From: Laetmonice hystrix | Lineage: Eukaryota | Assembly (NCBI GenBank): GCA_965235115.1 | Contig: OZ249436.1 | Coordinates: forward strand, 31,312,001-31,376,000 | Direction: 5' to 3' | DNA: 64,000 nt | Shown: piece by piece, positions 4,300 through 51,240 of the stretch | Layout: each line of letters starts with the position of its first letter | Position numbering within the stretch: position 1 is the first letter of the stretch | Notes under the pieces: generated by a model | Told to the model about the DNA's origin: nothing | Seen by the model: only the letters and a program-made list of their open reading frames with translations | Databases searched by the model: none | Made by a program: the position numbers and the translations under genes

Positions 4300-4466
4300 C
4301 AGGCGCGGATCGAGGGGAGGGGGCGTGGAGGCGCAACCCCCCCCCCCCCCTTCACCAGCACAATACAAAATTACAGACAAAATAGGTAGTCACCAATCGG
4401 AACCCCCCTTCAAGATTCTGAGCCCCACGCCTCCTCCCGTTTGGGGAAACACTGGATCCGCCCCTG
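4300..4466. mobile_element. Short non-autonomous TIR element (CAG...CTG ends), 5-bp TSD GGTAG
   Basis: CAGGCGCGGATC at the left end and GGATCCGCCCCTG at the right; GGTAG at 4295-4299 and 4467-4471. Confidence 0.75.
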
Positions 4467-5494: not shown

Positions 5495-5958
5495 GGGCAG
5501 GTAGGCAGGCAAGCAGGCAGGTAGGCAGGGAGGCAGGCAGGCAGGGAGGCAGGCAGGCAAGCAGGCACGCAGGTACACGGGGAGGCAGGCAGGCAAGCAA
5601 GTAGGTAGGCAGGCAGGTAGGTATAGGCAGGCAGGCAGGTAGGCAGGGAGGGCGCCAGGCAGGCAGTCAGGCACGCGGGGAGGCAGGCAGGCAGGCAAGC
5701 AGGCAGGTAGGCAGGCAGGTAGGTATAGGCAGGCAGGCAGGCAGGTAGGCAGGTAGGCGGGCGGGTAGGCTGGTAGGCAGGCAGGCAGGTAGGTAGACAG
5801 GCAGCAGGCAGGTAGGCAGGCAGGCAGGTATGTAGGCAGGCAGGCAGGCAGGTAGGCAGGCAGGCAGGCAGATATGTAGGCAGGCAGGCAGGCAGGCAGG
5901 CAGGCAGACAGACAGGCAGGCAGGTATATAGGCAAGCAGGCAGGCAGGCAGGCAGACA

Positions 5959-6016
<58 letters not shown>

Positions 6017-6385
6017 TATGTAGGCAGGCAGGCAGGTATGTAGGCAGGCAGGCAGGCAGGTAGGCAGGCAGGCAGACAGGCAGGTAGGAAGACAGGCAGC
6101 AGGCAGGTAGGCAGGCAGGTATGTAGGCAGGCAGGTAGGCAGGCAGGCAGGCAGGTAGGTAGACAGGCAGCAGGCAGGTAGGCAGGCAGGTATGTAGGCA
6201 GGTATGTAGGCAGGCAGGTAGGCAGGCAGGCAGGTATGTAGGCAGGCAGACAGGCAGACAGACAGGCAGGCAGGTATATAGGCAGGCAGGCAGGCAGGCA
6301 GCCAGGCAGACAGACAGGCAGGCAGGCAGGCAGACAGGCAGACAGGCACCCAGGCACCCAGGCAGGCCGTCAGGCAGACAGAGAA
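5495..6385. repeat. Degenerate (GGCA)n microsatellite with GGTA/GACA variants
   Basis: About 890 bp of GGCA-type tetramers; the source of the spurious (LPAC)n ORFs. Confidence 0.98.
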
Positions 6386-13740: not shown

Positions 13741-16700
13741 GCTCTCTCGCTCTCTCGCTCTCCAAAGCAATCCACATGCATACGACACTATACAACGTCA
13801 ATGGCATTATACATGTATTATCAAATGTGAGATCGATACGGCTCGATTTTACCAAAAGGTGTAAATTTAAAAGTAACTTAAGAGAACCCCCTCCCCCAGC
13901 CCCTATCTGTCATAAACCTCTTTGATGAAGATAGTGATTTTCCTGGTCATTAAGTATCCTTAGTAGGCCTGTACGTGACACGCGATGGCCCTTTCCTGCT
14001 GTACGTGCTACCAGTAGTATACGGCGGAAGCGACCCGACCCGCGTGACCCCCTAAAATGAGAGCTATTTCACAGTCATCCTAGCCTTTGCCATTTTGCAA
14101 TCGCGGTGCCTCGACAACTTATAGAGACATACATGTAGCCATCTTACGTCTCCAGTACCGCCCGTGGTGATCAGTGGTATTTCGAGGGCCGCAGATCTCC
14201 GGAAGACTGGCGTCGGTTAGTTCCCCGCTACCATCCGGCGGGCGTCGCGCTCTAGTATAATCGCAACCGTCGTGATCAGTACGTGATCGACGTGACATTT
14301 CCGAGAAAGCCGGTGATGTCGGCCGGGAATCGCAATGATTGTCCCCGGCGCGATATCTATACATGCCCCAAACTACTGCCGACGTATGGCACTGATACCT
14401 GGCCGCTGTCCGCGTGTGTTTGTGGTGGCTTTGATGATACGAGGAAAGGGTTCAGACGGACCATGGGGGCAGTTCCGTGTTGGAGGAGAGAGACGAGGGA
14501 CAGGGCGCTCGCATGCGGAAAACAAAACTTTTTAATATGCTCACCTAAGTAAGGCCAGCGAATTCAAAAAGATCGACTCTGTATAATCTTGGATTTAAAA
14601 GCCGTGTTGCTTGGTGCATGGGGTCGATATTCTCAGGCCAAAAGGCTCATGTTCCATATATGATTCTGGGCTGGTCGAATGGAACATAAACCCACCGCCC
14701 CAGGAAAATACCTCGCAGCAAGCGAGTGACGTTAGCTCGCCCCCGCCTCAACCTTCGCCTCCTCCGGGCGCCAGTGCATGGAAGAAAATGTTGAAGACAT
14801 CGATGGGCCTGAGCTCACAAGGCCCGTCCCTTATATTTTGCCTCGCTTTTTCCCCCGAAGTCCTTCAAATGGTTAAAAATCGGTAGCCTCTGGGAATTGG
14901 CCGGTCCCTTGATGGTCTGGCCCAGCATGACGCACGAAGAAAACGGTTGACAACGATATCAAATTTACGTGGAGATAAGCCGAGTTTCTCATAAACGAAG
15001 TTCTTTCAGCTGCCTTGTGAAGTTCTTTACTGCATGTGGAATAATACTTGGGATTTGAAACGTAATGTGGCCGGCAGCTAGGTTGTCTTCACGCCAGGCA
15101 CTCATCTGCTTATCTGCTTCGTGATGACGACACAAACATGGATGGGTGGCGCTATACTGGAAAGTTTAATCTCAATGTCATCCTCGCTGTCTTGGATTCA
15201 CAATAAACCCACATCTACCTTTCTCTCAATAGAGTCTTTCCTGTAGAGAAGGTTTGATGTACGTTTGTTAGAACTCAGAGCGTGAGATCTGGTTTGGTTG
15301 CGGGCAGGGCTGCCGGGCGAGGATTATAGAGGGGTATACATTATTTCTTCCCGTGTTTGTCTTTATTAGTAGTTGACTGGTTGCTATCCGTCCCGTACAT
15401 GGCAAGTGACGAGATGCATCAAATAGCGCAGTCAGTATGGTGGCTGCTGTCGAGCAGGAGTAGGGGTGCGGGGCTCAGCCTTCGTATGTCGTATACGCAA
15501 TGTGCTGCTGCCCGTGCCAATGCTGCTTTCGACGCATCTTCCACGCCATCACACTGATGCTGATCGACTGGCCCGTCGCATCCGCCCCCGCACGAGCCCA
15601 GCGGGGCACTTCCCCCCCCGCCCGCCACACGCCCGCCCCCACCCTCGCCCGCCCACCCACCTGGCTGCCCGCATCGCCACATTCGTAACGGTGTAGCATG
15701 GCTATAGGCGCAACTTTGACATGATTACTTATGTCTGTCCAAATTGTGTGCATGTCCCGTGCTTTGCAAATCGCTATACTGGTAACCCGCTGTCTTGGTT
15801 TTAATTGTCTACTCTGAATTAGCCGGTTTCAAAGCGTGCTGTCGCTTTATTATGAAGCAGACAAAACAGGCAAAGAAAACGAATCAAAACTCTTTCCCAT
15901 CAATTTGCTTCCAAAGGCAGACGTTTAGACACACCTTATGCATGTATCCTATACATGTATGCATCCTTTGGGTCTGTCTTTAACTTGGAATAGCAGGGCG
16001 AGGGCGGAGGAGGAGGAGGATGGGAGTTCTTTGTTGCTGCAGTCCTGCACACAGGGGTGCTTCCTAAGCTACCAAACATGGGTGGGGCAAAATGATGCGA
16101 GTTTATCGTAGCGCGCGACCATAGGTGAACATATAATGCGTACGTGCGTGGCACGTGCTTCGTGCGTCACACGGCCGACGGTAGTAGGTCGTAAAGCGGC
16201 CGTACATGCGCGTTAATATTATGGGATGCTAGTGGTGGTGGTGGTGGCGTTGGCGGTCGTGGATACCGTTTGCTCGGGGCCAGCTCCGACCCGTGTTGTG
16301 AGGCCTCCACTCGTTGTGCGCCTCCTCCCTCGCACTTGCACTTAAGTGACAGCTGCAGCGCGGGGGTGCTGCAATATCTATACTGCGGCCTGCCTGGGCC
16401 ACGACCGGCCTTTCTCCCCTTCTTTGTACGGCGCAGTGTCGACACGCACTGCTGAGGCTATACGGACGGCGAAGACGATGATAATGCCATGATTTCGTTG
16501 ACAAGTTATCCTCAGTTTGGGCATTTATAATGCTCCGCTCCGGATCGGCAACATTTACACGTTGGGTCATCCAGCGCAAGGAGTACATTTACTTGAAATT
16601 CTTCAACTGTGGTGGAGCAAATGCCACGCTTTAAAACGTCCGAGAATATAACCCATACACACTGGTTCGTGATTGCAGGGCCGACTTGGAGGCAGAAATT

Positions 16701-16878: not shown

Positions 16879-17294
16879 ATGTGCCGGCCGATTGGAGGTG
16901 GTGTAGGAGTTTTGAACAGCAGGGCGCACCCACGGCGACCGACAGTCACGGACACCGACGGGAAAACGCGGCCATACTCAGCGGGGGCTTCTGTTGCTCC
17001 GGTCGCTCCCAGTGACAAAGACGTATATGGACATAGCTCTACTGGCTCCAGGAACAACAACCACAACAACAACTTCAACAACAATAAAACGAGCCTAACG
17101 TCTTCAAGTAGGCCGGCGCGGGCCTCCTGTTGTTTACTCTGGAGGGGCCTGCTCATGCCGCGAACGCTCCTCATGTGGCCTGTGTCTTTGCAGGTGTTGC
17201 TCGTGACGTTATGCTGCTGTAAACATGCGTCGTCGGATGGTAAACTCAACTTGATTCACGCTCGCCTCCTCAACATGCTGAAGACAAAACAAAG
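16879..17294 (+). CDS. First coding exon of a secreted cystine-knot growth factor precursor (signal peptide/anchor and pro-region)
   Basis: Open frame from ATG 16879, with an alternative in-frame ATG at 17155 that begins a signal-peptide-like stretch (MPRTLLMWPVSLQVLLVTLCCCKHASS). It ends at a consensus donor AG|GTAAGT (GT 17295-6) in phase 2, which matches the phase of the acceptor at 31195. Confidence 0.75.
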
Positions 17295-18237
17295 GTAAGT
17301 TTGTCCCTTTCAACTTCAAGAAATCTTTCATGGTGCAAGTTTCCCTTTAAGAAGCCGGCGTTCTACGTCAGCAAAATATTTATAAGAAAGGACAGAACGA
17401 TCAAATTCTTAACGCAGATTTACTGATGATCGGTAAACAACGCGGAAAAAAGTTGCAGTCGCTGCCGTTTGAAACAGTGTGGTTGTTTACCAAAATGATC
17501 TCTGTCTTAGATCTTTTGAAAGAGAAAGCGGGGGTTATAAATAGGCAGGAGGTAAAAAAACGCTTGGTTCTATGCATTTGTCACGATTATATCCTGGATG
17601 GTCTACAGAAAAACATTGAAATTGATGGATTTGGAATCGATTTAAGGCAGTCAATGTCAAGCGATAGACCCCATCACCCGTAGCTGAGACTCGGACGTTG
17701 GTTCTCAGGGGACCATATACGGGGAAATGTCCGGAATCGTCAACATTTATTGGCCATGATAGGTGTGAACGGTGGTTCTGTATCATTGCAGGTCATTAAT
17801 TTTCTCCACCGAAACAAGGATTGTTCCCGTAGACACCAAATCCTACATTTTAACCAACATTTTCAAATATTCATAAAATTGCGTCTTTTCGATAACATTT
17901 ACCTTCAACCAGTTGAAAATCCGTGAATGCAAACAAATTGGCGGAGGTGGGGACTGCAATTGGCTGCTTACCGGTGTGCCGTTAGGAATAAATTATAATA
18001 ATGAAGTATTAACGTCACAGTCTTTCGACGGGATCCGATTGTTCCAGAGTATGCAAAATCGTCATTGTGCAATTCAATGTCTAAACGGTCCAATATAGTG
18101 TGCTTCCTAAACATGCGTGACAACTTTATGGGAACATTCGGTGCGGAAACATTACATTCGGACCCTCTCCTTTCTTCATCTCTCTCTCGCTCCTATTAAG
18201 TTTCACTCATCGTGCATGTCGGATCTTTCTTGGCATA

Positions 18238-18240
<3 letters not shown>

Positions 18241-18314
<74 letters not shown>

Positions 18315-18319
18315 CTCTC

Positions 18320-18350
<31 letters not shown>

Positions 18351-18360
18351 CTCTCTCTGC
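18241..18360. repeat. (CT)n microsatellite; similar CT/GA tracts at 13690-13762, 19098-19363, 22545-22618, 43714-43774, 56540-56791 and 58254-58480
   Basis: Directly visible dinucleotide runs. Confidence 0.97.
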
Positions 18361-20946
18361 TGTTTCTCTTTGATCCGTCCTTCCATCCTTCCAACTCCGA
18401 AGCGGCGGTGCTATATTGTGCTAGAATGTAGAAAAATGGTATTGTCTGAGATATATAATATTGACATCACCAAATATCGATACCGTTTTATGGCAAACGT
18501 ACACGCCATGTCTATATTTAGCAACAACATGAATGATGGTATATTGCTCTAGCAAAGATGCGCGATGGGACGGGGAATGGTACAAGATATGGGAAGATCC
18601 CTTGTGCATGGTGTCGGCAACGGGCCAGCTGTTTGGGAGCGAACCGATTTGGGAAGATGAGGATTGTTACGCGCAGTATGTGCGGTGTGTGTATATGCGG
18701 TGCGTGTGTATGGTGGCGGGGGAGGGGGAGGAATGGGAGGAGGGGGAGAGGGCGGACGGTGGTGGGCGGGCCGCCGTGCTCTCTACAGTTACGTACGTCC
18801 TTCTAGCAAGGCGGTCGGTATACCAGCAGGGGAGGGCATGGTGTATTCAAAGATCGGGATATATGGAGACCTCTGACTGTATGGTACGTAGGCCCTATGT
18901 ACACGGTAAAGTTGACATAAGCATGCCCGTCATGTCTCTGTGGACACGTGGAGGCAAATCCAATAAGGCAGAGAGCGGTGTGTCTCCCGTTCTATATTTA
19001 GCCTCTTTAGCGACGGAAGAGCCGAGTTTTGCCCCTTTTTACTTACAGCTCACGTGACGCTGCAGTGTAAACTGCGGTAAGAATTGATGCAGAATGTATC
19101 TCTCTCTTTCTCTCTCTCTCGCTCTCTCGCTCTCCCTCGTTCTCTCTCTCTCGTTCTCTCTCTATCTCGCTCTCTCGGTCTCTCTCCCGCTCTCTCGCTC
19201 TCTCTCTCTTTCGCTCTTTCTCTCGCTCTCTTTCTCCCGCTCTCTCTCTCGCTATCTCTCTCGCTATCTCTCTCTCGCTCTCGCTCTCTTTCTCTCGTCT
19301 CTCTCTCTCTTTCTCTCGCTCTCTTTCGCTCTCTTTCTCTCGCTCTCTCTGGCTCTCTCTATCTGAGTTCAGTCAGGTACATGAGGTGCTCATCTTTACG
19401 TTGTATTATATCTCTCCCACCCTCAGGATGAGTTTGTCATTGGTTGTCTTACGTCATTGTTACAGCAATCATTGGCCATCTAAACTTTTCACTCTTTTTA
19501 TTCTGACGACACGGGGCACATTGCGTCCACGTTCGTTAGACTGTAAGAGTTTTATTGCCTAGCAAATATCTTACTTGATAAACCTCGGCTAGACTAAATG
19601 GACATGTGCGCTCCTCTTGGGAAATACCATGACGGCATTAAGCTTGGTTTTGCGGCCCAGTCGTCGCTGCCAGGTCCCTGGGAGTAAAGCCGGGGGCGGA
19701 GTGCAGCAGTTTCCTGTGCGATGTCGCCACAAGTCCGGGCCCACGGTGGGGACCGACAGCTAAAGGTAACACCACGGGTTCAAGTTACTAACTCCGTCAC
19801 CTGACACAGTACCACAGCCTGACGGTCCGCGCCGTCCGCGGTTACTACAACCCGAGCCTTTGTCTTGGTCCCTTGGCTTGGGGTCTTACCTCCCCCGCTC
19901 ACCCAAATCATGCGCTGATTTCGACTACTTGACTTCCCAGATACACCTGTGCACACTTGTAACGCGTGCAGGAAACAGACGGAATCGTCTTTCATCTTTG
20001 CATCGACCGACCGATAAGCTGTGTTTACTGTTTCGAGTTTGTCGTCGTTGCCTCATGAAATACTAATCCCGGCTGCAGATATCTCTTACGTTTATTGTCA
20101 TGGTTGTTAGTGTCAGAGGGAAGGTCAACAAATATCCACATCCACATTCTGCCATTTTAACCGTATATGATGGTGGCTCACACAGATCCTAAATAATATA
20201 AACTTCCCATTAGTCGCATAATACTAGACGTGTCTGTAATTAGTGACGGATATTATAAGCTGTCAAAATGCGCGTTGTGTCGTTCACCATTGCTCCCCGT
20301 GGAGATATAGGTCTATGAATAAACGTCTAATCGTTATTACATGAAGCAGAAAGAAAACCGTTGGAATTGGAAGTGATTTGTGTGCCATTAGCCTGTCGCT
20401 CAACAGATCAGAGTAGCTCTGCAAACGCTGTAAGCATGGCCGTGCGCGGGCTCTAAATCCAATGGGGGTCGGCTGAAGGGGTTGGCGGGGGCGAGATCCT
20501 ATTAAGTCACCGAAGCAAACCATGTTCACACGAGCTTAAACTAATCGGTATGGATATAACACAACAACGGTCGATATGAGCTACATACACCACTGGCCCC
20601 CGTTGGGGTTCCTTTACCGGGGGTGGGGTGGGGACGGGGGGAGGAAGGTAGAGAGACGCCACCTAAGAAAGTACTCGATCGGCCAAGTGGGTTGAGGTGC
20701 TACTGCCCAACTCCCACGCTTTCCGTCACTTGCTGCATCTAATGGCGACTGTTTTTCGCCCGATTACCTTTCGCTTTTACCGGCATTAAACGGTGGTGTT
20801 GGCGGGGGAGCAGTGCGCCCGCCAGTGTGGTCACCTTCAGGGGTGATCCGCCCCCCCCCCTCCACCGCCTCCCCAAACAAGTCTATTGCTTGGCCGGCGA
20901 CGGGCTGGTGTAAATAACACTTTCGGACAGGATAACATTCCAAGTG

Positions 20947-20977
<31 letters not shown>

Positions 20978-22541
20978 GGGATGGTTTTATTGATGGAGTG
21001 TAGAGTTCATTGGTAGCTCTCTATCTCAAAGCCTAGGAGACTAAAGCAGTTTAGTAATGCTTTTCTGAAGTTTATTTACCTTTTTAATATTTCACTTGTT
21101 AGGGGAAGCGATACGAGTCAGCAGGGTCTATGGAACATTTAACCCCCCTAAAAAAACTATTACTGAAAACTAATCATTGTACCCGTATTCAACAAGGCAG
21201 GAAACTCCAACATTATACAGGACTATTTACGTCATGCGTTTATCGTAAATAATCAAAATGTTCAATATTAATGGCAAACGTGCGATTGTTGGCACACGAG
21301 AACTGACACGCTACACAGTGTTGTGCATGGGCCCCCGCTTCTATCCAGGACATATTGGTTATACATACACACCTGCCTTGAAGCACGTACACACTTCTAT
21401 TATTTGGATGCTATCAGAACATTGGCTAAATGGGCTATGTTGTACCACACCAACCATGCAATAACAGCTTATAAATATCTAAGAATAGGCACCTAATTTC
21501 TTTTTTTAATTTTAACCGATGACTATCGCTTCTGGTTCTAATTGTCTGTGGCTCGGGCTCCTCATCATATAGACATCAGACTAATGCATAAATTCATGTT
21601 TCTCTGGTATAGATCGCCATGCTAAAATCATTGGTCAGGGTCCGCCGTAACATGAGGTCGGCCTGGTGACTAATGATACGTTATGTGAGTCAGTTAGTAC
21701 CGTATCGGGGATACGCTTGAGTCGCAGGCTGGGTAATTACGTGTTCCAACCTGGAAAATATAATATACCTGGACAAGTCGGAGCTTTGTGTCAAGGCAAC
21801 GCTTGAGGTGCTAAGATATAGAGTTCGGACGTCGAGAGTTCATATACACAGCCGCATTAACCAAATTAACCAAATTAACCAAATTATAACGCTGCTTATT
21901 AGGTCTTTTGTTACACTTATTTGCTTTTCTCGGATAAAAGGCACATCGATGTCCACTGCTGAATTTATTGTCATTCTTAAATCAAATTTACATATGTACC
22001 AGGCGTCTAAAAAAGAGACTGGTTGCAAGACAAATTGTATTGATTTTAGGGTGTTTTTTTTACCCGTAACATCAAAATTTCAGATTACACTTTTTTCCAT
22101 CACAACTCGGGCTGACTGGCAGACTGGCCAATGGAACTGATGATTAAAGCACTGAAAGCCTGATCTTTTATCAGTTTAGGGGACATCCCACGTACAACGA
22201 TCCACCTTGCTCCATCTCTCTCTGGCCTATTGCTGATAGCCTGTAACTACGGGTCATTTTTACCTACTACTTACATGACCGCGACCGCGACTAGTAAGTA
22301 GTATATGAAAAGGGATATTAGTTGCGGGATCAATCTTCAAGCAGTACTTAACCTCGCGATTTCAAGTTTGAAGTGAGCTAGACTCGGAAATAGACGAAGA
22401 CCATGTTTCTTACCGAATCAGTAGAGGGTAGAATGGCACAGCAGGCGTGGGCCATTTATTTTAAAGCTTAAGGTTTGCATCTTTTTTACATTACTGACGT
22501 AAGTAATGCAAGGAAATCGTTTAGCATTGTTTATAATGCAG

Positions 22542-22595
<54 letters not shown>

Positions 22596-23214
22596 GATAG
22601 AAGAGAAAGAGAGAGAGACCATTGCTTGCCACCGCATGCGGATGGCGATATTTGACGTGTGACGCATTCTATTCTATACTTGGTACCCTAGATTCTAGCT
22701 AGATTTTTTTTTATCCAATGTCTAATGGAAATCGTAATAGAAATATAACTTTTAGGGCCAGTTTACCGATTCGAAATGGCACGTATGACGAATGGGCTCA
22801 ATGTCTCTTAGCCGAGATATTTCTTTATTTGAGATGAAATAAACTACTTCAGATCCACGGGTCAGATATTTCCGACAAAACACACTAATTGCAGTGCAGA
22901 TAGACTACTCGTGGCCGATTGGAACACGGCACGTTTCGTTAATCGAGGACGATCTCTCTTCTCGATTGGTTTGTATTAGTGGCTACAACGACCGCCTTGC
23001 AAACAGCCCCCTGAGGAGCATTGGCCGGTCGCCGCCCGCTGCCCCCCCCCCCCTCCACCACCCCTGCCGCCACCGCCGCCACCGCCGCCACCACTGCCAC
23101 CGCCACCGCACGAGTTCCTTCAGTCACAGCGATTTTTATCTTCGCCTTGATCCAACCGACTCGGAAGTGGGGGCCACCTTCCTTCTTACAACGGACGTCA
23201 GTGGCGGAAATTGA

Positions 23215-23752
23215 GGGGTGGGCTGGGAAGGGGGTGGTCAGGGTGGGGAGTGGACCAGAGGTGTGGGGGTGTGTGGTCAGGGTGGGGAGTGGACCAGGGG
23301 TGTGGGGGGGGGGGGTGATCAGGGTGGGGTGTGGACCAGGGGTGTGGGGGTGGTCAGGGTGGGGAGTGGACCAGGGGTGTGTGTGTGTGGGGGGGGGGGG
23401 GTGATCAGGGTGGGGAGTGGACCAGGGGTGTGGGGGGTGGTCAGGGTGGGGAGTGGACCAGGGTCCGGTTTTTAGTTTGGAAACTGAGTCTTAAGATTCA
23501 AATCTTAAGATTGAATTCTTGTTTCAGAGCTTCTGATTGGTCCTTCAAATGAAGTCAGCCAATGAGAGACCACAACACAAGTCAGTCTTAAAATTCCAGT
23601 CTTAAGATTGGTAAAATGACGAACTAAAAACCAGGGCCAGGGGTGTGTGTGTGAGGGGGGGGGGAGTGGTCAGGGTGGGGAGTGGACCAGGGGTGTGTGT
23701 GTGGGGGGTGGGGTGGGGGGTGATCAGGGTGGGGACCAGGGGTGTGGGGAGG
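23215..23752. repeat. G-rich minisatellite (GGTCAGGGTGGGGAGTGGACCAGGGGTGTG core) split by a MITE
   Basis: Units at 23230-23461 and 23638-23750. Confidence 0.9.
23461..23638. mobile_element. MITE inserted into the G-rich array
   Basis: GGGTCCGGTTTTTAGTT ... GAACTAAAAACCAGGGCC inverted ends, with internal TCTTAAGA palindromes. Confidence 0.75.
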
Positions 23753-26700
23753 GAATATGAGAGGGAGACGGCAGACACTAGACGGAGAACAAACGGGGCT
23801 GTTAAATTGAGAGCAGTTATCGCAGTTATCGCAGTTATCGCAGTTATCGCAGTTATGACACAACATCTTTCTGACGTGTAGGCCTACGTGCGTCAGTTTG
23901 AAGCTTGGCGCCATTTTCATGGGGTAGTCTATATATATTGTCAAATAGGACAATAAATGGCTGCATATTTTAAAATGAAGGTACCATTATAACTTATTAA
24001 TTTTAGCCTTGTTCTGTAGTTGCTTTTTAAAACTGATTCCTGCAATATGATACAGCAATACCTACAGGTGTTAGCATGAAATTATTGTCGGAAAAATACA
24101 GTCACGCACCTTCTAACCCGTAACAGTACATAATCTAATAGATAAAATGCAATTATACACACTGTAAACTGGGTTCTAATATTTCATAATTGTTACTGAA
24201 TCGCGTGCCTAATGACATATCTGTCTGTCTGATTTTAGCCAGTATTTTATGCCAGCCGTCATTGCCATCAAACGATAATTTGTCTGAAATTCCTGCAGAA
24301 ACGAGGCAAAATGTAATTAGAGTCTATTCCACCAACCATGCCGACCGAAATGAGAGGTCCTGGCATGGCGGATAAATCGCCTGTTAGACTAGAGAAAGCT
24401 AGAGCCGCAGTTAGTTCGCTACCGCCGCCCACGCATCCTCCGGTATAATCGTTTGGGGAAACACACTAACCACATTTAGGCTCCACCGTATCAATATCTC
24501 CGTTGCTTTCAGCAAGCTAATACGTTTCATTTGGGCGACAGTGGCCCAGCCGAGACCTGGGGCTGTCGGAGGAGTTGAAGCGGCAAGAAGAAAAGGCGGG
24601 AAGAAAGCCTGACTAGAGTAATACAGACAGACGTGGCTGCGTGGCGTCGCGCGAACGGGCGCGCCAGGCTGGGATAAAGCCAATAGAACAGCCCCTCGAG
24701 CCATGCCCCCAACTGTCCCATGTCAGGCCACAAAAATGTAACAGACACCATGTTCCCCGCAGGCAGACAGCCACCCCCGCCAAGCCGCCAGCAACTGCTG
24801 CGGCTGCGCGCTTTCACTTGCCGCGACACCTAGTGGCAATGCACGGAACATAACTGGTTCGGTCATGTTATCGGTCACGTTCGGCGTTACCTGACAGGTG
24901 AAAGTCTTTTATTGTCGGGACTGCTCGGATGCTCCTGAAACTCTGTGTATCGCATTTCACATGTGTGAAAAGAATCGAACACAAAACCCCAATCTCAAAA
25001 TAGAAGTGCATGGGGTTGAGTGTGGCGTATGTTTACGACGTGTTGACCTACATGTGCCAACATTTTATAACAATCAAGAAATACCTGTCACTATTGGCAA
25101 CATAATTCAGCAGCTACAAGTCCATTTACTGCTTCGATCAATTCCTGCCGCCATGGCGTAATTTTGTGTTTCGTGCAGATGAGCCTTGATCATTTTTTAT
25201 TCCTAATGTAGTAGATGAGTTTCTAGCATTATATGATCCTATGATAGCTAGCTCCAGGACAATACCTACATGGACAACCAGCCTCTTAGAAAACCATGAT
25301 TTACCGCATCACAACCCTAGGACGATAACTATTTAGAGAAATTATCCCGAAGACAATAATTATCCCTATTGTCAACCGTAACCTTGGCTGAAGTAGAGAT
25401 AATTTCGAGAATTATTTAAAGCTTCGCCATCTTTTTGCCTACGGTATCCTTCAGTGTTGAGTGTCGGTTCAGTGTCGACCGATACGCAGAGAGTAGGCCT
25501 ATAGGCCTAAGTATATTATTATACTTCATGGAGGGGTTTTGTACTGGGTTAGCTATCTCTTTTGTCCTATAAAAATTAACTTGTGTAGAAAATGAATAGC
25601 CTGGACGTGGTTTGTTCCTGTAATTGTCTTTGTTTAGCTATCTTTGCCCTGTCGCTCAGAACTGCATTATAGGCCTAATACTTCGGTGGAGTTGTCGAGG
25701 GAAATGTCACTTTCCGTATCCCAGCTATCCGTAGCTGATGTGTAGTAATGTACATTGGAAAGCGATGCTGTGAAGTGCTCCCCCCTCTTCCCCCTATATA
25801 TTTACCACAAAATCAACTCACATAGTTGCTGTTTATTAGGGTTGATTTACCTTACATCAATGAATAATTAATGCTGTATGAAAACAAGAGGATGAGTATC
25901 CCCCTGCACCAACCCATCCCGTTAACTTGTGTTCAGCTATCCAGGGATACGGGGCCGTCTCTCTGCCTCGTCTGAGCGACCCTATAAGCGACGGTAATGC
26001 AGGCCGATGTCTACAGCCCGTTCGGGAATTTCTAAATGAGATTTCCATAAATATGTGATTTCCCGCGGAGATTAGGAGAAAAGCAGGGTCTGACTAAGGA
26101 ACTGACCTTGGTAATCGGCGATACTGATCTCCCAGTGACACACCTGACACTGTTCTCAGACAGAATGCGGCATGCCAAGGAAACGCTTGGAATCAAATTA
26201 TAGTTCTATCTGTATACGATCGGGTCGGCGGCATGTTGCATTGATATTTACAAATAATGTCATCCATGTAAGACAAGTGTCTTAAATATGGTCAACCTAG
26301 AATACTATACAAACTTTAAGTACATTTAAAATTTGTTGTTTTGTAAAATTCCCTGATCATCCGACTAATCAGGTTACAACTCTAACAGTGGCCAAATTAT
26401 ACTTTTAAAACACGTTATCAGTAGGCTGGGAATATACCATGTTTCAAGGGAGAATGTGGTCAACAGCTGGGAAGTGGCGAGTTTAAAAATATAGCTCCAG
26501 CTTGCCAGTGAAATGCTGTATACAAAACGAATACAATAAAAGGTCAATGAAAAACCTTGACCTGGAATCAGGACAGCCGGAAGAATCGATCAGAGAACCG
26601 GTAAATAGATAAAGGTACAACACAGGGTCGTCGAATGGACAGAAAGCACGGAAATAAACCCATCCTATACATGCACCTGCTTTGGCCTCCGTCGTTCCCT

Positions 26701-27136
26701 TTACCGTACACTGTTCAGTGCCTGATATCATGAAGCACGCGAATATTTTTGCTTCATGTGAATCCACACGTATGCCGCTGCTTTCCGTCTCTGGGGATAC
26801 AGAAATAGAACGGCAATGGTTCCGATTCCACGATTTATTAGCTAGAAAAACCACGTGCTTTCGTCACAAACCCACACGGATGGCGAAGTATACTGTCATG
26901 GAGAATTAATATTTTACAGTCGGCTGACTACTTCCAAAGTTTCACACTTTGATGTATGGGAATGAATGGCTCCCCCTAAAATTAAACAATCCAACCAATA
27001 TGTCATTTTTATAGAGGGCCTGCAACCAGTGTATTCTTGTTTTCAGTATCTCCTTAAGTGAAAGAATTGAGACGAACATTCATAACATTATTTTGAGGTC
27101 CCGAAGCAAAAAGACATAGATAAACTCATATCATGA

Positions 27137-27361
27137 CAGTGGGGGATCCAGGATTTTGATAAAATTTAGCCGAGTGTAGCGAGGCATGATTTTGTTGCGA
27201 TTGTGGCCATTTTGGCCCCCTTTTCACGTATAATAATATAGGAGGCTTTTTTAAAAAAAATTTGGTATCCTGGTTCCAGGGTCCGAATAATGGAATAAAA
27301 AAGGGGGAAAGGAACATTTAACGGGGGCCCGGGCCCCCTGGCCCCCCTGGATCCCACAGTG
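27137..27361. mobile_element. Short non-autonomous TIR element, 5-bp TSD CATGA
   Basis: CAGTGGGGGATCCAGG ... CCTGGATCCCACAGTG; CATGA at 27132-27136 and 27362-27366. Confidence 0.75.
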
Positions 27362-30300
27362 CATGAACGTCTGCTTCTTACAAGTAAACAACCAGCAATC
27401 CAGCTCCACATGAAGCTCCATGTTCACAGTGACAAGGCAGCATGCACACACCCAGGAGATTGCCGGGATTGGTGAACCAATTTACCCAGGCCGTCCCACA
27501 CTTGAAGCATCTCCTCTGTGGTAGAACGATTATCTCCGAAGTCGACCGACGCACCAGTCGTCCGGCTTTGTCTTAAGGTATAATTCATTTGGACTACTAT
27601 TTTTAGCCTCAAATATCTGGAGATCATGGCGAAATTGTTGCAGTCTATTTCTGGCGTCCCGTGAGGGGAGTTGGTTTAGATTAGGGGTACGCTTGGAACC
27701 TCGCTGCCGGGAGGTGTGTGCAAGCGGCAGTCGCTGGCTTCGAGTCTGCAGGCTTATACCAATGACGAGTGTCGGCCGTAGCTCTCTGAACTGATAAATA
27801 AAAAAAAAGCACAGTGAATGGCGCCTTCTTACGTCATTCGAAAGACTATTAGATCAGAGATAGGCTCTGCACGGAAAGGCTCTTTGGACGGAGCGATACA
27901 CGGTTCTTGCCTTTCACTGTAATGGCCGTTTTGCAGTGTGGCTGTTTCATCAGGAAGCAGCAGCAGCCAAGTCGAGAGGACATGAGTTGAGTCCATTATG
28001 ATTCTGACTCCTTGTGGTAGCGGGTCTGACCGAACACTTGTGTAGAACGTGGTAATCGTTTACACTTACAAAACGGCCTTTGGTAACAATGAACGGGAAT
28101 GTCGCTATCAGTTACAGGGAAAGGAAACGCTGCTGTTTTCTTTAAATGTAACGGTGAACGCTGGTTGTACCATATCGATGTGTAGTTGTTCGAGCAGTGT
28201 TCGCTGGATTCATACCGAACGTCTTTATTCCCAGCCCGTGCCGCGCGTTACTTATACAAACGGAGCTGCCATACTTGCCGCCTCCCTGACGCCACGCAAA
28301 ATAATATTTATAGATTCGAGTTGGCCCCCTGAACCGTCCACAAGCAGGTCGTGATTTTATCGCAGGAGGAGGATGCGATGCTGTACAGGGGTTTAGACCA
28401 ATCCGATGTGCACCCGTTAGTCAACCCTGAAAGCGCGGCGACTCTTCCACTGATCGTTTCACTAATTTCATTAGCTCTAGCGGATTTTCTGGTCGGCATC
28501 TTGGAGTAGAATGGAGAGTGCGACGCCTGGACCTCTGAAATCAGGACCTCGTGTGCCAGGACTGATAGCGCCAGACCTCTTGACATTTTCCACCGGCCTG
28601 TTCCGCCACCCCGATGTTGACTTAACTCGTGGTGAATTTGCCATGGCAAAGAGAACCGTTAGAATGCCGACAAGACTGTGAATTCGGATTACAGTATAGT
28701 AACTGAAGCATCTATTCATACACTTTTCCTTAGGCAGCCTGGCATTATGTTTTGTTCAACTTTTTAAAGTTTTACAGTAACAAGGTTGGCTGGTAAGCGG
28801 ATTTTGATTACCGCCTGCACTGCAGGTTGTAATGTTCGTTTGATGTAATGGTCGTTTCTTTGGTTGTTCATCATGGTAGCCAGGGTAGCGCGTGCAGAGA
28901 GAGTGTATAGTAGCCGTCCGGCCAAGTCGAGACTACAGTGTGGGCGTGCAGTCTCAACTCAGCTGGTCGACCTTCGCAGCGACATCACAAAACGAACACT
29001 CTTACTGCATGGTAGCAGAAAATCAAACGACTATTTTATTTAATATTTTCACGATTGATAACAATACAAATCTGTTATTTTCCCCGCCTCCATATTGTAG
29101 AACGCATTTGCAGGAATCGTGAGATAATTTCTAATTGGTTAGATTAATTAGAATGAGTGGATGGTGTGATGGGGTGGGAATCTGGTGACGAGCTCGAATT
29201 AAAAATTCGCCTTCACTCATCACCCCTGACTATCCTGTATGAAGAAAATAAGAAGGGCACTTAATCAGTTAATAAACCTTCATGTTTAAGATGACTTTAT
29301 ACCTCAAAAGGTGCTACACTGTAGGCAATGAGGAGAGAAAAGTTGAAACCTGCAGCTACTGCAACTTCAGCTTTTCCTTCATCCACTACAAGCTTCCCAC
29401 TTACAACAATGCCTCAGGAGGACCATTACCGCAAATTGAAATCAGAATGTATATTTTTCTGGTCCTGACAACGACCATTAACAAGAATGAAGGCATCTCT
29501 CAATTAGTCAATAACACGTGTTGCCTATGACACCTTTCTCATCTTTCATGGTTACTCCGTGTCATCTTCGTACTTAACGGGTTCTAGTATATCTACAATC
29601 CGCCAGCCGTTATGATTTTGAAAAAAAAGCTTTTCAAATTAGAAGTATGCAACAAGTGACAGGCACACCACATAATTTCCGAAGTTTAATGGATGACATA
29701 AAGAAAACACGTCCGCACAGGAAGAAAAAAAGGGAGGGATAAAAAATACTCTCCTGAATTGCATCGCTTTCGTTGACCTTAGAGCGAAGGCTGAAACTGT
29801 ATGCATTTTATTGCATTTCCTCCAATGACTGCCGCTGATTGGATACCAAATCGACAGTTTTCTCGCGCTTAAGGAACGCTAAGTCGTCTGAGTCGGGCAT
29901 TGAGATAGGATTACTCCCACACACTTCCCACAAGCATACCAATGGGTCCGAGATGAAAACGAAGGAAGAGATTTATCACTATCCACTACTCAGACAAGGT
30001 CCCGGGAGCACTGAAGTTGTAGTCAGTGAACCAGTAGTAGGTTTAGGCGTCGACCTCACAAACTGCCTGCTATCATGGGAGCCCAGACTGACCACCCTGT
30101 CCCGAGAGGCCCGATATCTGTGTTTTAAGGGGTTCCTGGACGGCGTCAACCAACAGCCATTTTGCTGCCTCTCGTGGTATATAGAAACGACATTTTATAC
30201 CACAACACCTGGCTGAGCTTCACCCCTGCTTTCCACACCGTATCTGTTATGCACTTAGAAAGAGTGCTGACTCGGCACGTTTCGGACACCTACCTATTAA

Positions 30301-31195
30301 GGAACACGATACAATTTGCATGAGCTGGGAAGATTTGTGATAGGCCGACGTAGGGGACTGACACCCTGTTGGCCCTCAGCTATACAAAGGTCTTTTTTCT
30401 CCAGTTTCTCAATGCTAGAGATGTTTTTACAAAGGTTGCTGGATGGTAATTAATCGACCCCACGGGTCAACTTATTCAAGCCAATTACTTCTTCCCCTGA
30501 ACACAAAAACTGTAAAAACCAATCCATATTGGTTGTAGAGGGCGGGAAATGGAGGAACCATACCTTCAACTCACAGAAGTGATCTACACGACGCCCATTT
30601 ACGGACATTTATTTCGCGCTAATTTCTTAGAGATCACTCGGGGTGGAGAGAGTTCTCCTCCCTCTCCTGGTATCAGTACATTGGTATATTTCATGGATCT
30701 CGGTAACATTCTTTTCTAATGTAGGTAGATTGAATGACATGGGGGAAACGATGGTCTCGGTGGTGTTGACCGTCAGAGAGAACTTACCGTCCCTGCCGGT
30801 TTGCTCCTGACTTGTCGGATACGAACATTCAACTTCATATGCACGCTAGCGCTATTCGTTACTTACACTTTTATTGGGCCGACGTAATCAGATTCGCTGG
30901 TGTGTTGGACCTTGCCGCACATTTATATATTTGCAAAGAGTAGGGTAGTTATGGTACTTGGCTTGCTACTTTCTGATTATATTACATTTTTATCTGATTC
31001 AGTTACATTATTTTATGCTCTTGTACTGAAGATGGTGACAAAGGGTCGATAGGATGTATTTACCTCGATGACTTCCTTAATCGCTCTTTTTGAAGGAATG
31101 AGTAGGCCTACTCTTTTTGACCGTGTTTTTTTGTTCCTTTTTCCTGATGAAAGAAGTTCGTTCCTCTTTCTTATCTTTCGTCTATCTCTTTGCAG

Positions 31196-31607
31196 TTTGT
31201 TCTACCGGCGTCAGTTGCGTTCGGGACTAGATTTGCGAGAACACCGGCTTTTCCACTCGGATCCCAAGCTTGACTGCTGCCCGACACTCACGGAATTAGA
31301 TCCCCGCAGAACTGGTATCAACCCGAGTGGCATGGTGCTTGAGCTGTTCACCAACCCCAACTTTACCCAGACTTTCTACGAAACTGTCTGCCACCCGGCA
31401 TACCGAAACAAGGCTTGTCAGTATGTGGATCAGCGTATCGCGTTCGCCACCCGCTGTGTCCAGGTATATTCCTATGTGTACGCCATTGGAAGAACGTACG
31501 GGACCCGCGAACAGTTTCGTATTGACTACATCCGGATACCGGCGGGCTGTAAATGCCAGGTAAAGAAAGAGTACCTCCGGCGTCGCAAGAAAAGCGTCAC
31601 CCAGTGA
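31196..31607 (+). CDS. Terminal coding exon: neurotrophin/spätzle-like cystine-knot domain
   Basis: Long polypyrimidine tract and TGCAG acceptor at 31191-31195. Encodes RRQLR (furin-type RxxR), then DCCP..NPSG.VLEL..QTFYETVC..ACQYVD..RCVQVYSYVYA..YIRIPAGCKC, the NGF/spätzle cysteine pattern. Stop TGA ends at 31607; AATAAA at 31777. Confidence 0.9.
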
Positions 31608-34204
31608 ACACAAACCGAACTAAGACCTAACGGCTTAAACTATAATATGATAAAAGTAACGACCGCTCTCCACTGACTCCTGTGTATGTCTGTACATGTA
31701 CGTTACAAAATGGCTTCGGCATCAGACTGATCGATCATCGGTGGACTTGAGCAAGACCTCCAAGCAAGAGCACGCAAATAAATCTTTAATATAGACGGAC
31801 ATTTTCATGATTAATATTGCTGTGTACACTTCTGGTATGTTATACATTTTGATTAAGTAGTTTGTCACCGACGACAGTCAGTCACTCGAAGGTAGTTTGG
31901 CATTTTGCACCGGGCTTTGTTTATGCGGTTAACGGAAACTGGTTTAATGTGTTTCAGTTCTGTGTCGCTCAAAGAGCTGCTCAGGTAGAAGCAGTAGTAT
32001 AGTTGATAATGAATGTGCCATCCCGCAGGTAATGAATGTGCCATCCCGCATATTTGCGAGTGAATACGGTTTTATTGTAATTGGTCGTCTCTCTTAATAT
32101 ACATCTGGTGGCTGAAAATTCCTGCAGGTTTTAGAGCTCTTCCGAATTCCTTTCAGTCCGTGTAACGCGTAGATTCTTTCGCACCCACAGCTAGACTTCT
32201 ATCGTGAAAAATTTTAAATGTTTTAAAGCTGTGCCTTTGTGGCTGTGTATAAGGTGAACGTGCAATATTAACTCCGTATCGTGTTGTCACCAGGCGTTTT
32301 GCTTGTTTCGTTCTGCACCGAGTGATGCACGCTGTTAGGTTAATTCTAAGATAAGGATGGTATTGAAGTCGGGAGGCCCGGAGCCTATGGCTCCAACGTT
32401 GCCAAACTAATAGACATAAGGAGGCTGGAACATGCCGTGTGTTCCGAGGTCGCAAGGACTGTCGGTGGGAAGAACGTCACCAGGTGGCGTGGCGTGCCCC
32501 CTCAGAGCGAGGCTGCGCGGAAGTGGGCGCGCGAAGAGAGCGAGGGCACACCGCGGTCCAATCATTATCGACGACTAGTGGTGGTGACGTCAGTATCAAT
32601 AGAGCTGACGTCACGTGTGGTGGAATCAAACATAATCTGATGTCGAGTGGCTGTGATGTCGGTTATATTGAAGGTATTAACTGGTACTGTGTACATCGAG
32701 TGCAGAAAGATTGGTGAAGTTGAAATGACTCTAATGTACGTTTCTACAATTTTTAGAAGAAGCGTGGTCATAACGTAGAAGAGGTCGGTCCCATTCACGG
32801 ACCAAGCGTTTGGTGAGAAGACAAATGTCTTGATGAGCTAGAGAATCTTGACCAGATTAATGAGGTTCCAGGGGAACTTTTTCTTTATTTTGCAACAGGA
32901 AACGCAAAACATCCTGGTGTCAAGTCCTCTCAGATAATGTGTCTTTTACAGACAGTCTCAAGAGACGACCCTTTTCCTTGAGCAGTTCATGGTTAAAATG
33001 CTATCGTTGAACTAGTATAAAGTACAAAGAGTCAAGCTATGCTTTATATCCAAGTTGGGTTCGTTATATTGAGAAAAACAGTATATAGACATAATATTTA
33101 TGTATGAAATCGTTACACAGAACTTAGAATAAGCGCTTAAATACATGGTTCACTTTGTAAATCGAGGGGGATAAATGTGCCAACTGCCTTGAAACATAAT
33201 AACGAAAGTCAATCAGTGTTTGATATCAACATTAAGGCTAACGCTAGAGCAAATTAGGCGGTTTCATCGCTGGTAGTTTGTGCAATCCCCTCAAATCTCG
33301 CAGGTTTTATAATGGATAACTGTTTCAAATTTCAAGTTTCAATTTAATTGTTTAGTTTTCATGATACCTGATGCTGAAACCGGGCCACCACTTTCAATGG
33401 ACATGAATGTGGCTGACACTTTAAGGCTATAATATAGACCGGTCCTTGCGCCTTTTGTAATTAGAAGAGCGACGTGAGTTGCTTAAAATAAAGTTTGTGA
33501 CATAGGAGCAAATCCTACGGAAATATTTTGCGAGATGGTAGTTGTAATGTTTAGATAATGTTAGAGGCCCTACATCGCAATGGAGCTATGTTATTCAATG
33601 TAAAGTTTAGCAGCTGAGGTCCTAACTCCATTATGGTATACTGAACGCTTTATAGTTCTAACCCATTGTGTTCTTTCTTCTTTCTTTTTTAACTTATTAT
33701 TTGCCTTGTTTTGAAGAGACTCTAGACAATAATATTATTACCATAATTATTAACAAAATACATAAGATTCAGGGAAAACTAACTTGACAAAGCAACTTTG
33801 CAAGTTTTCGGGGTGTTTGTCCTTTAAGGAGACATGACTGTGTATCACATGTACGATATATTATCATATTTATATATTACACCGATACCCTTGAATTGAA
33901 TACGGTTATCGTTGTACGAGTCGCATCGGTCGAAATTAAATCGAACGCATTGTGATATGTTGTTTGGCGTGTAAGTTATATATAGATTATATATTTGTGA
34001 TCGAGGTAAGGATATAATAAAAGGGAGGAAAGGCATGGTTGGACGACTGCTCCGCTCGTCCCCAAAGCTCTTGATGGGTGTGAGAGGGCGTCGTCATTAT
34101 AACCGTCTGCCACTAGCAAAGACCGTTAATTTAACTCGGGCGATCACTCTTTAATAATCATAGCCAGTTCACACGGAGAAAAGTGTTGCATCACAACTCC
34201 CTAT

Positions 34205-49071: not shown

Positions 49072-49657
49072 CTGTAGAATAAAATCAATAAATACTAAAA
49101 TTATGTTGATCATTCCCTTTAATATAGGCCCTGGACATCATTCTTACAAGTATTAGGCCTACTGCACTGACTTTTCAAATGAGGTCTTTTGTGGGAAATA
49201 GTCTTTTGCCGTTTTTTAAAGCATAAATTTCCCTTTAATAAGTATATATGTAATAGAGGGTCCATGACCTCAGTTATTTCACTGGTGTTATAACACTTGA
49301 AAATGGACCAAAAAAAGTCGGGAAATATTCATAATAAAGACAAGATATTCATTTGAATGTTGCAGTGTGTTATTAGTGCTTAGTGTCTCGTCAACATTAT
49401 ATCGGCTATTCCAAAAACAAAAAGAGATATAAAAGTAGTGCAAGAGGTTTTATTAAACCAATTTGCTAATAACCACGCTAAAAATAGACACCTGCACGAT
49501 CTGTTTCCAATTAGGGCATCGTTCCGGTTATTGAGAAAAACACGCCGAGTGCTACTGATTTAGAATCGCTAATTAACTAGATCAGCTCGCCGAGTGCTAG
49601 CAGTGGTTTCCGGGGCCCATTTTGGTATACAGATTAGGCCCGCGGCTTGTGGCTTAC

Positions 49658-49871
49658 CCGTTAATGGAGTGCTGATTGGAATGCCTTCCTTCCATGTGTC
49701 TACGATCGGATCGTAGCATTCTGTTGAAGTAAGTCGTTTATTGGAGTCCCAGCTGTAGCCCCCCACCACGTGAATGGCGTTGTCAAGCACAGCGAATCCA
49801 GCCTCGGCCCGAGGGGTCCCGATACACTTGACGGCCACCCACGTGTCAGTGAGGGGCATGTAACACTCGAC
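49658..49871 (-). CDS. Kelch-like protein exon
   Basis: CGCAG acceptor; VECYMPLTDTW..PRAEAGFAVLDNAIHVVGGYSW..TECYDPIVDTW; donor G|GTAAG; phase 0/1. Confidence 0.93.
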
Positions 49872-50338
49872 CTGCGTTTGGTGACCGAGGAGAAAGATGA
49901 GCTCTCTATTACTGAAGTTTGACAGAGGCTGTCAGCGGCACGCCTTTAGTCAACCTGCGTGCAGCTCCACCATCATTATCACAAGCGTCATTCGACTGCA
50001 GTCAATAATTGGTTGGAACACTTTTTTTGGTGATGCCCTCTACCCCTTCCATCCCCTCCCCTCCCCTCCCCTCCCCCATTGTATAGGAATACCGTGCATG
50101 AAGAATGTGCAGCAGACAACTGCATTGTCCTGACCTCTACACGCAGGGTATTATAACTTTATGACATCGTGCAAACACAGACAATTTACAGAAGAACGTA
50201 GAAATCACATTATATCGCGCATAATTCTGAATTACAAAAAGGACTTTAAACGGATTATAGGTGAATAATTAAATCTAAACAGCATGTTACTGTACTAATG
50301 TATCCGACTCGGACTCCCTCTTTCGAGACTGGGATATG

Positions 50339-50635
50339 TACTGGAGTTTAGGCTTATATCACTTACTGGAGTTTAGGTTTACATCACTTACTGTAGTTTA
50401 GGCTTACATCACTTACTGGAGTTTAGGCTTACATCCCTTACTGGAGTTTAGGATTACATCACTTACTGGAGTTTAGGCTTACATCACTTACTGGAGTTCA
50501 GGCTGACATCACTTACTGGAGTTTTGGCTTACATCACTTACTGGAGTTTAGGCTTACATCACTTACTGGAGTCTAGGCTTACATCACTTACTGGAGTTTA
50601 GGCTTACATCACTTACTGGAGTTTAGGCTTACATC
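50339..50635. repeat. Intronic minisatellite, 25 bp, about 12 copies
   Basis: TACTGGAGTTTAGGCTTACATCACT. Confidence 0.97.
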
Positions 50636-50648
50636 AATAACCCCTCAC

Positions 50649-50827
50649 CTTTCTCACGCAGACAACATTGCCGTTTTTGTCGACGGTGGCGCCCCCAAAC
50701 AGGATCAGTTTATTGCTGACTGACGCCAACATGGCAAAGAAACGCGGAGAAGTCAATGCCCTTCTAGTTTCCCATTGGTCCACCAGAGGGTTGTATCGCT
50801 CCACACGACTCGATATCCGTTTGTGAC
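50649..50827 (-). CDS. Kelch-like protein exon
   Basis: CATTCAG acceptor; GHKRISSRVERYNPLVDQWE..PRFFAMLASVSNKLILFGG..VRK; donor AAG|GTGAG; phase 1/0. Confidence 0.93.
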
Positions 50828-50986
50828 CTGAATGGGGTGATATAGAACATAATGAGGGGTACTTTTGTATCCAGTATACAGGTTGGTGGGCACCTATATA
50901 TAGGCCTAAAGTCCTACTGAAAATCCAGTGGGCCACCGTCGACTGGCCGATTGATATATGAATCAACGTTGGTGACTGGTGTATGA

Positions 50987-51240
50987 TGCCCCATTCACAC
51001 AGCGACCGATACCGACACTTTTCCTGCCAGATATCGGCCGCCGACGTTTTTGAAGACCGGGTCGTTTCCGTGGACCTTGACGTAACAGGTCCAGCCGACG
51101 CCGAGCACGGTTCTCGGTCTCAGCGACGAGCGCTTTGCATCGGTTTGCCGTTTAGCGTCGGTGTCGGCATCGTTTCTGCATTCCCACGTCGGCATCGGCA
51201 TTGGTATCTGTGCCGGTATCGGCCACGGTTGAATGAGGTT
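50987..51240. mobile_element. Degenerate MITE
   Basis: CCCATTCACACAGCGACCGATACCG is inverted relative to CGGTATCGGCCACGGTTGAATGAGG; internal CCGAC/GTCGG motifs. Confidence 0.55.

Follow-up and report, generated by a model that had tools for sequence, protein, structure and literature searches.

The window analysed here, a 64,000-nt stretch of the Laetmonice hystrix contig OZ249436.1, carries at 31196–31607 a reading frame for a cysteine-rich protein, and the question it raises is whether this protein is a neurotrophin, a spätzle or neither, and which receptor it might serve. A preliminary description made from the letters alone had suggested a poorly characterised clade of cystine-knot ligands between the two families. 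Our preferred account is that the window protein is a secreted cystine-knot ligand of the neurotrophin/spätzle superfamily, belonging to a protostome-wide family here called CCP, which would be released by a furin-type convertase and would act, probably as a covalent dimer, on a receptor of the Trk clade; as a whole, we regard this account as evenly poised. The gene anatomy as drawn by homology, the fold, the family and the conservation of the seventh cysteine are instead held with high confidence.

The frame 31197–31607 codes for 136 aa followed by a stop, with cysteines at residues 27, 28, 65, 74, 87, 118 and 120, thus confirming the CC, C, C, C, CxC arrangement previously described. All six cysteines of the knot were present at neurotrophin spacing, as was the conserved Gln, and the motifs listed in the preliminary description were all found, namely QxFYETxC (QTFYETVC), CxxvD (CQYVD), CxQxY (CVQVY), yVxA (YVYA) and IRI.xxCxC (IRIPAGCKC). 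The Pfam check that it had proposed was passed for both families, NGF (36.1 bits, E 8e-9) and Spaetzle (31 bits, E 3.9e-7) lying above the 27-bit cut-off, and a weak IL17 match (E 0.009) was also recorded; the best solved relative by sequence was BDNF (E 7.7e-6). Since the Pfam scores exceed the cut-off and an exhaustive database search returned 177 representatives at E ≤ 0.001 (the best 150 of 177 were examined), the frame is not a chance one.

A word-based search gave 13 relatives among 15 candidates, all with seven cysteines, and searches among longer proteins found nothing in the ranges 239–2000 aa (77 candidates) and 651–2000 aa (6709 candidates), which is weak evidence. The pooled set comprised 159 proteins, of which 138 were compared after removal of 3 without a domain match and 18 fragments lacking Cys I; full domains were picked by pattern (n = 124; 35 rows failed the pattern, and one more and 16 near-duplicates were set aside). 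A species was named for 12 of the 30 clusters checked (Paralvinella, Capitella, Elysia, Lottia, Haliotis, Lineus, Daphnia, Artemia, Rhipicephalus, Procambarus, Orchesella and Phymastichus); no deuterostome was found among these 12, most matches carrying no name. The family thus ranges over annelids, gastropods, a nemertean, a tick, crustaceans, a springtail and insects. Within the knot, identity of the window protein was 59–62% to two annelid members and 34–42% to the rest. Trees were built from 100 columns with CCP members only, without an outgroup; the window protein and both annelids fell in a branch of 28 rows (support 98) when 7 long-branch rows were removed, and of 31 rows (support 86) when these were kept, a placement that makes an annelid host probable. 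Fourteen rows whose pro-regions are long and strongly basic formed a separate branch (P0101, P0113, P0125, P0133, P0137, P0139, P0141, P0146, P0148, P0150, P0157, P0162, P0167 and P0169), one row being named (Procambarus). Matches in the ESM Atlas, to be taken as leads only, were mixed NGF/Spaetzle clusters, including a nematode cluster at 0.89–0.90 and a mostly chordate top cluster.

On the sites of Wilson et al. 2009 (PMC2772990) the family is mixed: site 133 is neurotrophin-like, the absence of Trp130 and Asp30 is spätzle-like, and the CC pair resembles neither. Site 133 was Ile in the window protein, Ile or Val in 134/138 relatives and Ile, Val or Met in all 138, with an aromatic residue in none, and the Gly site of CxG(I/L)D was occupied by Phe or Tyr in 143/155. 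The residue nine positions after Cys I was Arg in the window protein and Pro in 88/147 members, and this position may correspond to Wilson's Spz-diagnostic Pro13. As for the PxxCxC element, previously read as spätzle-like, it does occur in the window protein, but it is not a feature of the family, since the Pro of site 136 recurs in only 11/138 relatives. The placement of the clade between the two families stands in terms of motifs and scores only. One member, P0123, has Trp at the Trp130 site together with CCP and is useful for rooting.

The seventh cysteine aligns to BDNF Val12. A Cys directly before Cys I was kept in 134/138 relatives, a count biased upward since the query itself carries CC, and 117 of the 124 full domains had all seven cysteines, 3 lacking the extra Cys and 4 lacking Cys III. 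Conservation of the extra residue in orthologues, on which the preliminary description had made its proposal depend, was thus observed. Its analogy with the dimerisation cysteine of spätzle did not survive, because the extra Cys of Spz1 and of Sp-NT2 adjoins Cys V (PMC2772990), whereas here it precedes Cys I. Indeed, the site beside Cys V was Gly in 134/138 and Ala in 4/138, that is, Gly or Ala in 138/138, and the analogy is therefore functional at best, not positional. In the predicted dimer the seventh Cys lies in the interface, touching Cys III of the partner and the residue before Cys VI. As an odd cysteine so strictly kept, and apparently buried in the interface of a secreted protein, it would most likely form an interchain bond. 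In a long-branched subgroup (P0115, P0126, P0163 and P0168), knot Cys III is lost while the extra Cys and Cys VI are kept, a hint that the two can pair across the dimer.

The structural model, obtained from a 150-sequence alignment, reached a pLDDT of 94.2; an earlier one from 14 sequences was poor (pLDDT 47) and was dropped. In the Foldseek search neurotrophins occupied ranks 1–36 as listed, the first spätzle appearing at 38. Structural Z (VIA) was 10.1–11.4 for the first 23 rows, all neurotrophins (1b98_M: Z 11.4, rmsd 2.8, 101 aligned), and for spätzle it was 9.1 (7b1c_P, rmsd 3.0, 90 aligned), 6.5, 6.4 and 6.2. The family profile gave in turn BDNF at E 7e-11 and spätzle at 2e-5 to 2e-4 against PDB, and no spätzle was aligned when P0065 or P0072 was searched singly against PDB. 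Predicted fold and family profile both favour a position nearer to neurotrophins than to spätzle. The homodimer suggested in the preliminary description also appears plausible, with a predicted score of 0.71 versus 0.06 for the best of 3 controls, runs agreeing in at least 98% of contacts and a partner pLDDT of at least 84. The same mark was reached in microbes by 21/30 solved homodimers and 0/23 monomers, and in eukaryotes by 17/29 homodimers (animals 7/16; 1/7 without an older solved relative) and 0/30 monomers.

Part of the family had been noticed before. Lima et al. 2021 (PMC8296651) described 'Spz7' as an arthropod similarity cluster; its assignment to Spätzle came from a Pfam search combined with a network of similarities, and the accessible text gives neither a tree nor a function for it. 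Their spätzle FASTA holds 62 CCP occurrences, of which 36 were examined, giving 31 distinct entries from 20 species and then repeats; the 20 species included D. pulex and no dipteran or orthopteran, which is the taxon pattern of Lima's Spz7. By eye, entry EDAN009915-PA and P0102 are the same throughout the stretch shown, and near-identity was noted between Apis LOC100577936 and P0142 and between the Daphnia pulex entry and P0065; P0102, P0142 and P0065 were hit by the window protein at E 1e-12, 5e-9 and 9e-17, respectively. On this taxon pattern, the insect CCP members are very probably the uncharacterised non-dipteran 'Spz7' of Lima et al., which our comparison would extend to annelids, molluscs and a nemertean. 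The clade is poorly characterised, as proposed, with its mixed diagnostics, but it had not gone wholly unnoticed. This 'Spz7' is not Wilson's crustacean Spz7, and its insect members, 35–38% identical to the window protein in the knot, differ from it in their N-terminal arm.

No mention of the CC motif, of the likeness to neurotrophins or of lophotrochozoan members was found in the accessible text of Lima et al. (PMC8296651). A full-text search on lophotrochozoan members or the CC motif found no literature, most subscription papers (e.g., Kassabov 2013) and the supplements of Wilson and Lima being outside its scope, and a full-text search with six accessions of family members found no paper mentioning them. 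Among other surveys, Heger 2020 (PMC7535936) states that there are no further unidentified neurotrophins in bilaterians and also gives a small third orthogroup (OG113491) without showing its members in the text available; this could be the CCP family or the Sp-NT2 group. Lauri 2016 (PMC4812194) reported a single Platynereis neurotrophin match, with the Platynereis and the second Capitella ligands chordate-like. In the literature so covered, as far as accessible, no functionally characterised orthogroup contains the window protein.

With the canonical neurotrophins (NGF, BDNF, NT-3, NT-4, Platynereis NT, ApNT, Eisenia NGF and Dappu-NT) the window protein shares the six-Cys spacing, the Gln, QxFYExxC, Ile at 133, an intronless knot, the closest fold and, by prediction, the signal + pro + RxxR layout and the dimer arrangement. 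Unlike them, it carries an extra Cys before Cys I and a Pro after it, Asn for Asp30, Tyr (in relatives Tyr or Phe) for the Gly of CxG(I/L)D, no Trp130 and a very short pro-region; ApNT and Eisenia NGF, as printed in PMC6160089, have a single Cys I, Asp30 and a Trp before the last strand. Identity with Capitella NT1, ApNT or Dappu-NT was rejected on the differences at Cys I, Asp30 and Trp130 and in the Dappu-NT motifs. With Spätzle 1–6 (Drosophila Spz, DNT1 and DNT2; Aedes Spz1C) it has in common the Pfam Spaetzle match, CxQxY, the absence of Trp130 and an odd number of cysteines, suggesting a covalent dimer. It departs from them in the extra Cys at Cys I-1 rather than Cys V-1, in the lack of an aromatic residue at 133 and in the occurrence of CCP members in annelids, molluscs and a nemertean, no Spz gene having been recovered by Wilson in three lophotrochozoan genomes (PMC2772990). 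Sp-NT2 and the Saccoglossus NTa,b (PMC2772990) are likewise mosaics of neurotrophin and spätzle features with Asn at site 18 and a proposed covalent dimer, but they are deuterostome, their extra Cys lies beside Cys V and, by Wilson's statement, Trp130 is kept. The C. elegans ZK856.6 and B0416.2 (PMC13174244) are divergent NGF-type knots lacking Trp130 and bound to a Trk-type receptor, differing in their six cysteines, the absence of CC and a retained CxGVD; by this motif (six Cys, no CC), the nematode TRK-1 ligands were rejected as CCP members. Since its members differ from the neurotrophins published for Aplysia, Eisenia and Daphnia, the family appears to be a third branch beside neurotrophins and spätzle, spread across protostomes. 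The window protein lacks defining features of both canonical neurotrophins and Spz1–6, and it probably works like them.

In the preferred account, the hydrophobic segment of the first exon would bring the precursor into the secretory path and a furin-type convertase would cut it at RRQLR. Two knots are then very likely paired side by side in the manner of neurotrophins, as modelled, and the Cys before Cys I, which replaces a hydrophobic residue of the interface, would probably lock the two chains together through a disulfide, formed with its symmetry-related counterpart or, crosswise, with Cys III/VI of the partner. More tentatively, the dimer would activate a Trk-clade receptor tyrosine kinase, either Trk itself or Trkl, its paralogue in protostomes; p75 may take part, and the role would be neural or neuroendocrine.

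A Trk-clade receptor is ranked first because of the fold, an NGF-like arm, the nematode TRK-1 precedent and a distribution matching that of Trkl. The HPIFH arm of NGF has a role in TrkA binding and receptor specificity. The segment DLREHRLFHSDP ahead of the knot, whose pattern was present in 21/24 annelid-side rows examined, bears a loose likeness to this arm of human NGF (sequence printed in PMC6160089). ZK856.6 and B0416.2 bind an LRR-Ig-Ig receptor of Trk type (TRK-1; PMC13174244) without having Trp130, so divergence of this kind is compatible with Trk binding. Trkl was reported in Aplysia, Lottia, Daphnia, Apis, Nasonia, Acyrthosiphon and, as a fragment, Capitella, and not in flies or deuterostomes (PMC2772990); CCP members were found in Lottia, Elysia, Capitella, Daphnia, Apis, Nasonia and Acyrthosiphon, and no dipteran entry examined was a CCP member, so that, on present sequence matches, the two distributions match.

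Several observations weigh against this account. As regards the ligand, Trp130 (Wilson numbering) is Ile in the window protein and Trp in only 1/143 relatives (two residues before this site, Trp is found in 69 relatives and Phe in the window protein), and all of Wilson's neurotrophins except that of amphioxus are stated to carry it (PMC2772990). Site 18 (NGF Asp30) is Asn in the window protein, Asp in 13/148 and Asn or Ser in 113/148, and the consensus C-x-G-[LIVT]-[DE]-x3-[YW]-x-S-x-C is not matched, Tyr replacing Gly and Trp being absent. At E ≤ 0.01 more members match Spaetzle (140/150) than NGF (120/150), the best Spaetzle E-value among members is lower than the best NGF one, and the solved spätzle chains are short (66–92 residues), which lowers their Z. 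As regards the dimer, the extra Cys is lost in three or four relatives and Cys III instead in four, contact between the seventh Cys and its own mate is absent from the 25 best-ranked of about 105 dimer contacts, and the passing score may reflect only likeness to solved neurotrophin dimers. As regards the receptor, the ectodomain of Trkl consists only of a small EGF region and its signal peptide is missing (PMC2772990), a poor match to known neurotrophin-binding modules; its shared distribution with CCP rests on a 2009 survey of few genomes; and the nematode ligands that provide the precedent are not CCP members.

The alternative that survives best, though unlikely, is that CCP proteins are true spätzles, Toll ligands that flies have lost but lophotrochozoans and most arthropods retain, and that act as disulfide-linked dimers in immunity or development. 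The Spaetzle cut-off is indeed passed, and the frequency of Spaetzle matches among members, the missing Trp130, the Asn or Ser at the Asp30 site and the Pro frequent at Cys I+9 all speak for it, as does the filing of the insect members under Spätzle by Lima et al. (PMC8296651). That filing came from a similarity network without a tree, however, and no Cys stands beside Cys V, site 133 is never aromatic, and profile and fold are nearer to neurotrophins. Slightly less probable again is that the same family and dimer use another receptor, such as p75/TNFR alone, a Kek-type LRR-Ig protein or a double-FN3 receptor (Torso, IL-17R). Cystine-knot ligands do switch receptor classes, PTTH and CFSH binding IL-17R or Torso (PMC11087794), Keks are kinase-less Trk-like receptors (PMC5591008), and the IL17 Pfam match, if weak, points the same way; but IL-17 folds reached only Z 6.0–6.4, and IL-17Rs are reported missing in Lepidoptera (PMC11087794), yet CCP is kept there (Bombyx and an HMEL entry). 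Quite improbable is a divergent copy of a described invertebrate neurotrophin (Capitella NT1, Lottia NT, Dappu-NT, ApNT or the Sp-NT2 group), for although the best Pfam and PDB matches are neurotrophins and Asn at the Asp30 site recurs in the Sp-NT2 group, the features of ApNT and Eisenia NGF given above (PMC6160089) set them apart, the signal and cleavage motifs given for Dappu-NT are missing from the Daphnia CCP protein, Trp130 is absent from the Capitella and Lottia CCP proteins, ELT90905 and ESP01230, and the extra Cys of Sp-NT2 is elsewhere (PMC2772990).

The Trk-clade account also has a bolder version, which we consider doubtful, in which this third ancient protostome branch, cross-linked through a novel Cys position, would be the missing ligand of the protostome-only Trkl. 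The branch would then date back to the divergence of arthropods from annelids and molluscs, and its knot possibly rearranged (I-1 to the partner's III, VI to VI); Drosophila-centred work would have missed the pair because both ligand and Trkl were lost in flies. If true, a second neurotrophin-type pathway, so far unstudied, would operate in molluscs, worms and non-dipteran insects. The gene itself is ordinary as a family member, and the interest lies in the family and its receptor. A second well-conserved ligand family in annelids, molluscs, nemerteans and most arthropods changes the inventory of the ancestral protostome, for which the prior picture was one conserved neurotrophin line in lophotrochozoans (PMC4812194, PMC2772990, PMC7535936). 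It would offer a candidate ligand for Trkl, for which none is named in the accessible parts of the literature examined, and the proposal is directly testable in Tribolium, bees, silkworm, Daphnia, Capitella or Aplysia.

Regarding gene structure, splice sites and frame fit a model of two coding exons, in which 31196–31607 would be the last and the preceding one would end 13.9 kb upstream (Table 1). The product would consist of a hydrophobic signal segment, a short pro-region, RRQLR and the seven-Cys knot, with a predicted length of 275, 183 or 177 aa depending on which of three in-frame ATGs is used. The last 33 residues of the first exon are identical at 21/33 positions (64%) to the N-terminus of the homologue P0002 (E 2e-12), with a weaker match to Capitella P0027 (E 1e-4). 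P0002 continues uninterrupted over the point of the exon junction; its cluster-mates P0015 and P0016 carry pyrimidine-tract-like residues up to the same point. The acceptor has a pyrimidine tract with AG at 31194–31195. In a contig of a related organism (organism B), 17173–17301 is matched without gaps and with 9 differences; for exon 2, no piece of organism B was found among the matches listed at 85% likeness. The aligned contigs, none of them recorded as RNA, contained no splice joint spanning the intron, and no RNA data set was listed among 7 runs, which carries no information on expression.

Where translation starts bears on the type of precursor. The ATG of the upstream extension has A at -3 and both downstream ATGs have C; over the extension the organism B contig shows net length changes of -6 and -6, divisible by three, and Capitella P0027 has about 40 residues ahead of its hydrophobic segment, without a nearer Met. 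With the extension, the hydrophobic segment would become an internal signal or anchor, making a signal-anchored precursor possible; a plain signal peptide is the rule among the other named family members examined. An RxxR lies at most 16 residues ahead of the conserved arm in 11/21 arm-bearing rows (24 examined), several others having KR or RR. The knot holds an N-glycosylation sequon (NFT), and from CC to the C-terminus there are 18 K/R versus 8 D/E. No second copy of the gene was found in the window, and an Rfam search gave no match.

Table 1. Coordinates of the features of the CCP gene in the window, as observed or predicted
Feature	Position	Strand	Remarks
Possible N-terminal extension from in-frame upstream ATG	16879..17154	+	92 codons, hydrophilic; uncertain
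First coding exon, core	17155..17294	+	Hydrophobic segment, short conserved pro-segment, donor AG/GTAAGT, phase 2
Hydrophobic segment	17164-17220	+	19 residues, CCC at end
Putative intron	17295..31195	+	Phase 2, GT...AG, 13.9 kb; from splice-site fit and homologue continuity
Last coding exon	31196..31607	+	First base 31196; end of pro-region, cleavage site, whole intronless cystine knot, basic tail, TGA
RRQLR, predicted furin-type cleavage site	31206..31220	+	Would leave a 128-residue mature chain
Conserved N-terminal arm DLREHRLFHSDP	31230..31265	+	Ahead of knot; candidate receptor-specificity segment
Seventh Cys	31275..31277	+	One residue ahead of knot Cys I (motif CCP)
Cystine-knot domain	31278..31556	+	Cys I–VI codons at 31278, 31389, 31416, 31455, 31548, 31554
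Basic C-terminal tail	31563..31604	+	Role (matrix binding or trimming) a guess
AATAAA, candidate polyadenylation signal	31777..31782	+	First after stop

Short non-coding blocks common with organism B contigs were observed near or in the gene (16585–16659, 20311–20427, 24400–24513 and 27818–27862) and are candidate conserved regulatory elements, or repeats. Within the intron, at about 23460–23642, lies a 180-base element bounded by imperfect inverted ends and embedded in G-rich tandem repeats, where contig depth was about 235,000 in the bin versus about 40 nearby, with many loose ends at both borders; it looks like a very high-copy miniature transposon. A second repeated intron element, at about 27134–27361, had a bin depth of 2,000–5,900. 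Elsewhere in the window, a degenerate short-unit repeat of about 1 kb (5423–6416) produces long spurious frames, and exons of a kelch-repeat gene were found on the minus strand at 49569–49931 and 50634–51119 (Kelch_1, E 1.6e-11 and 0.004).
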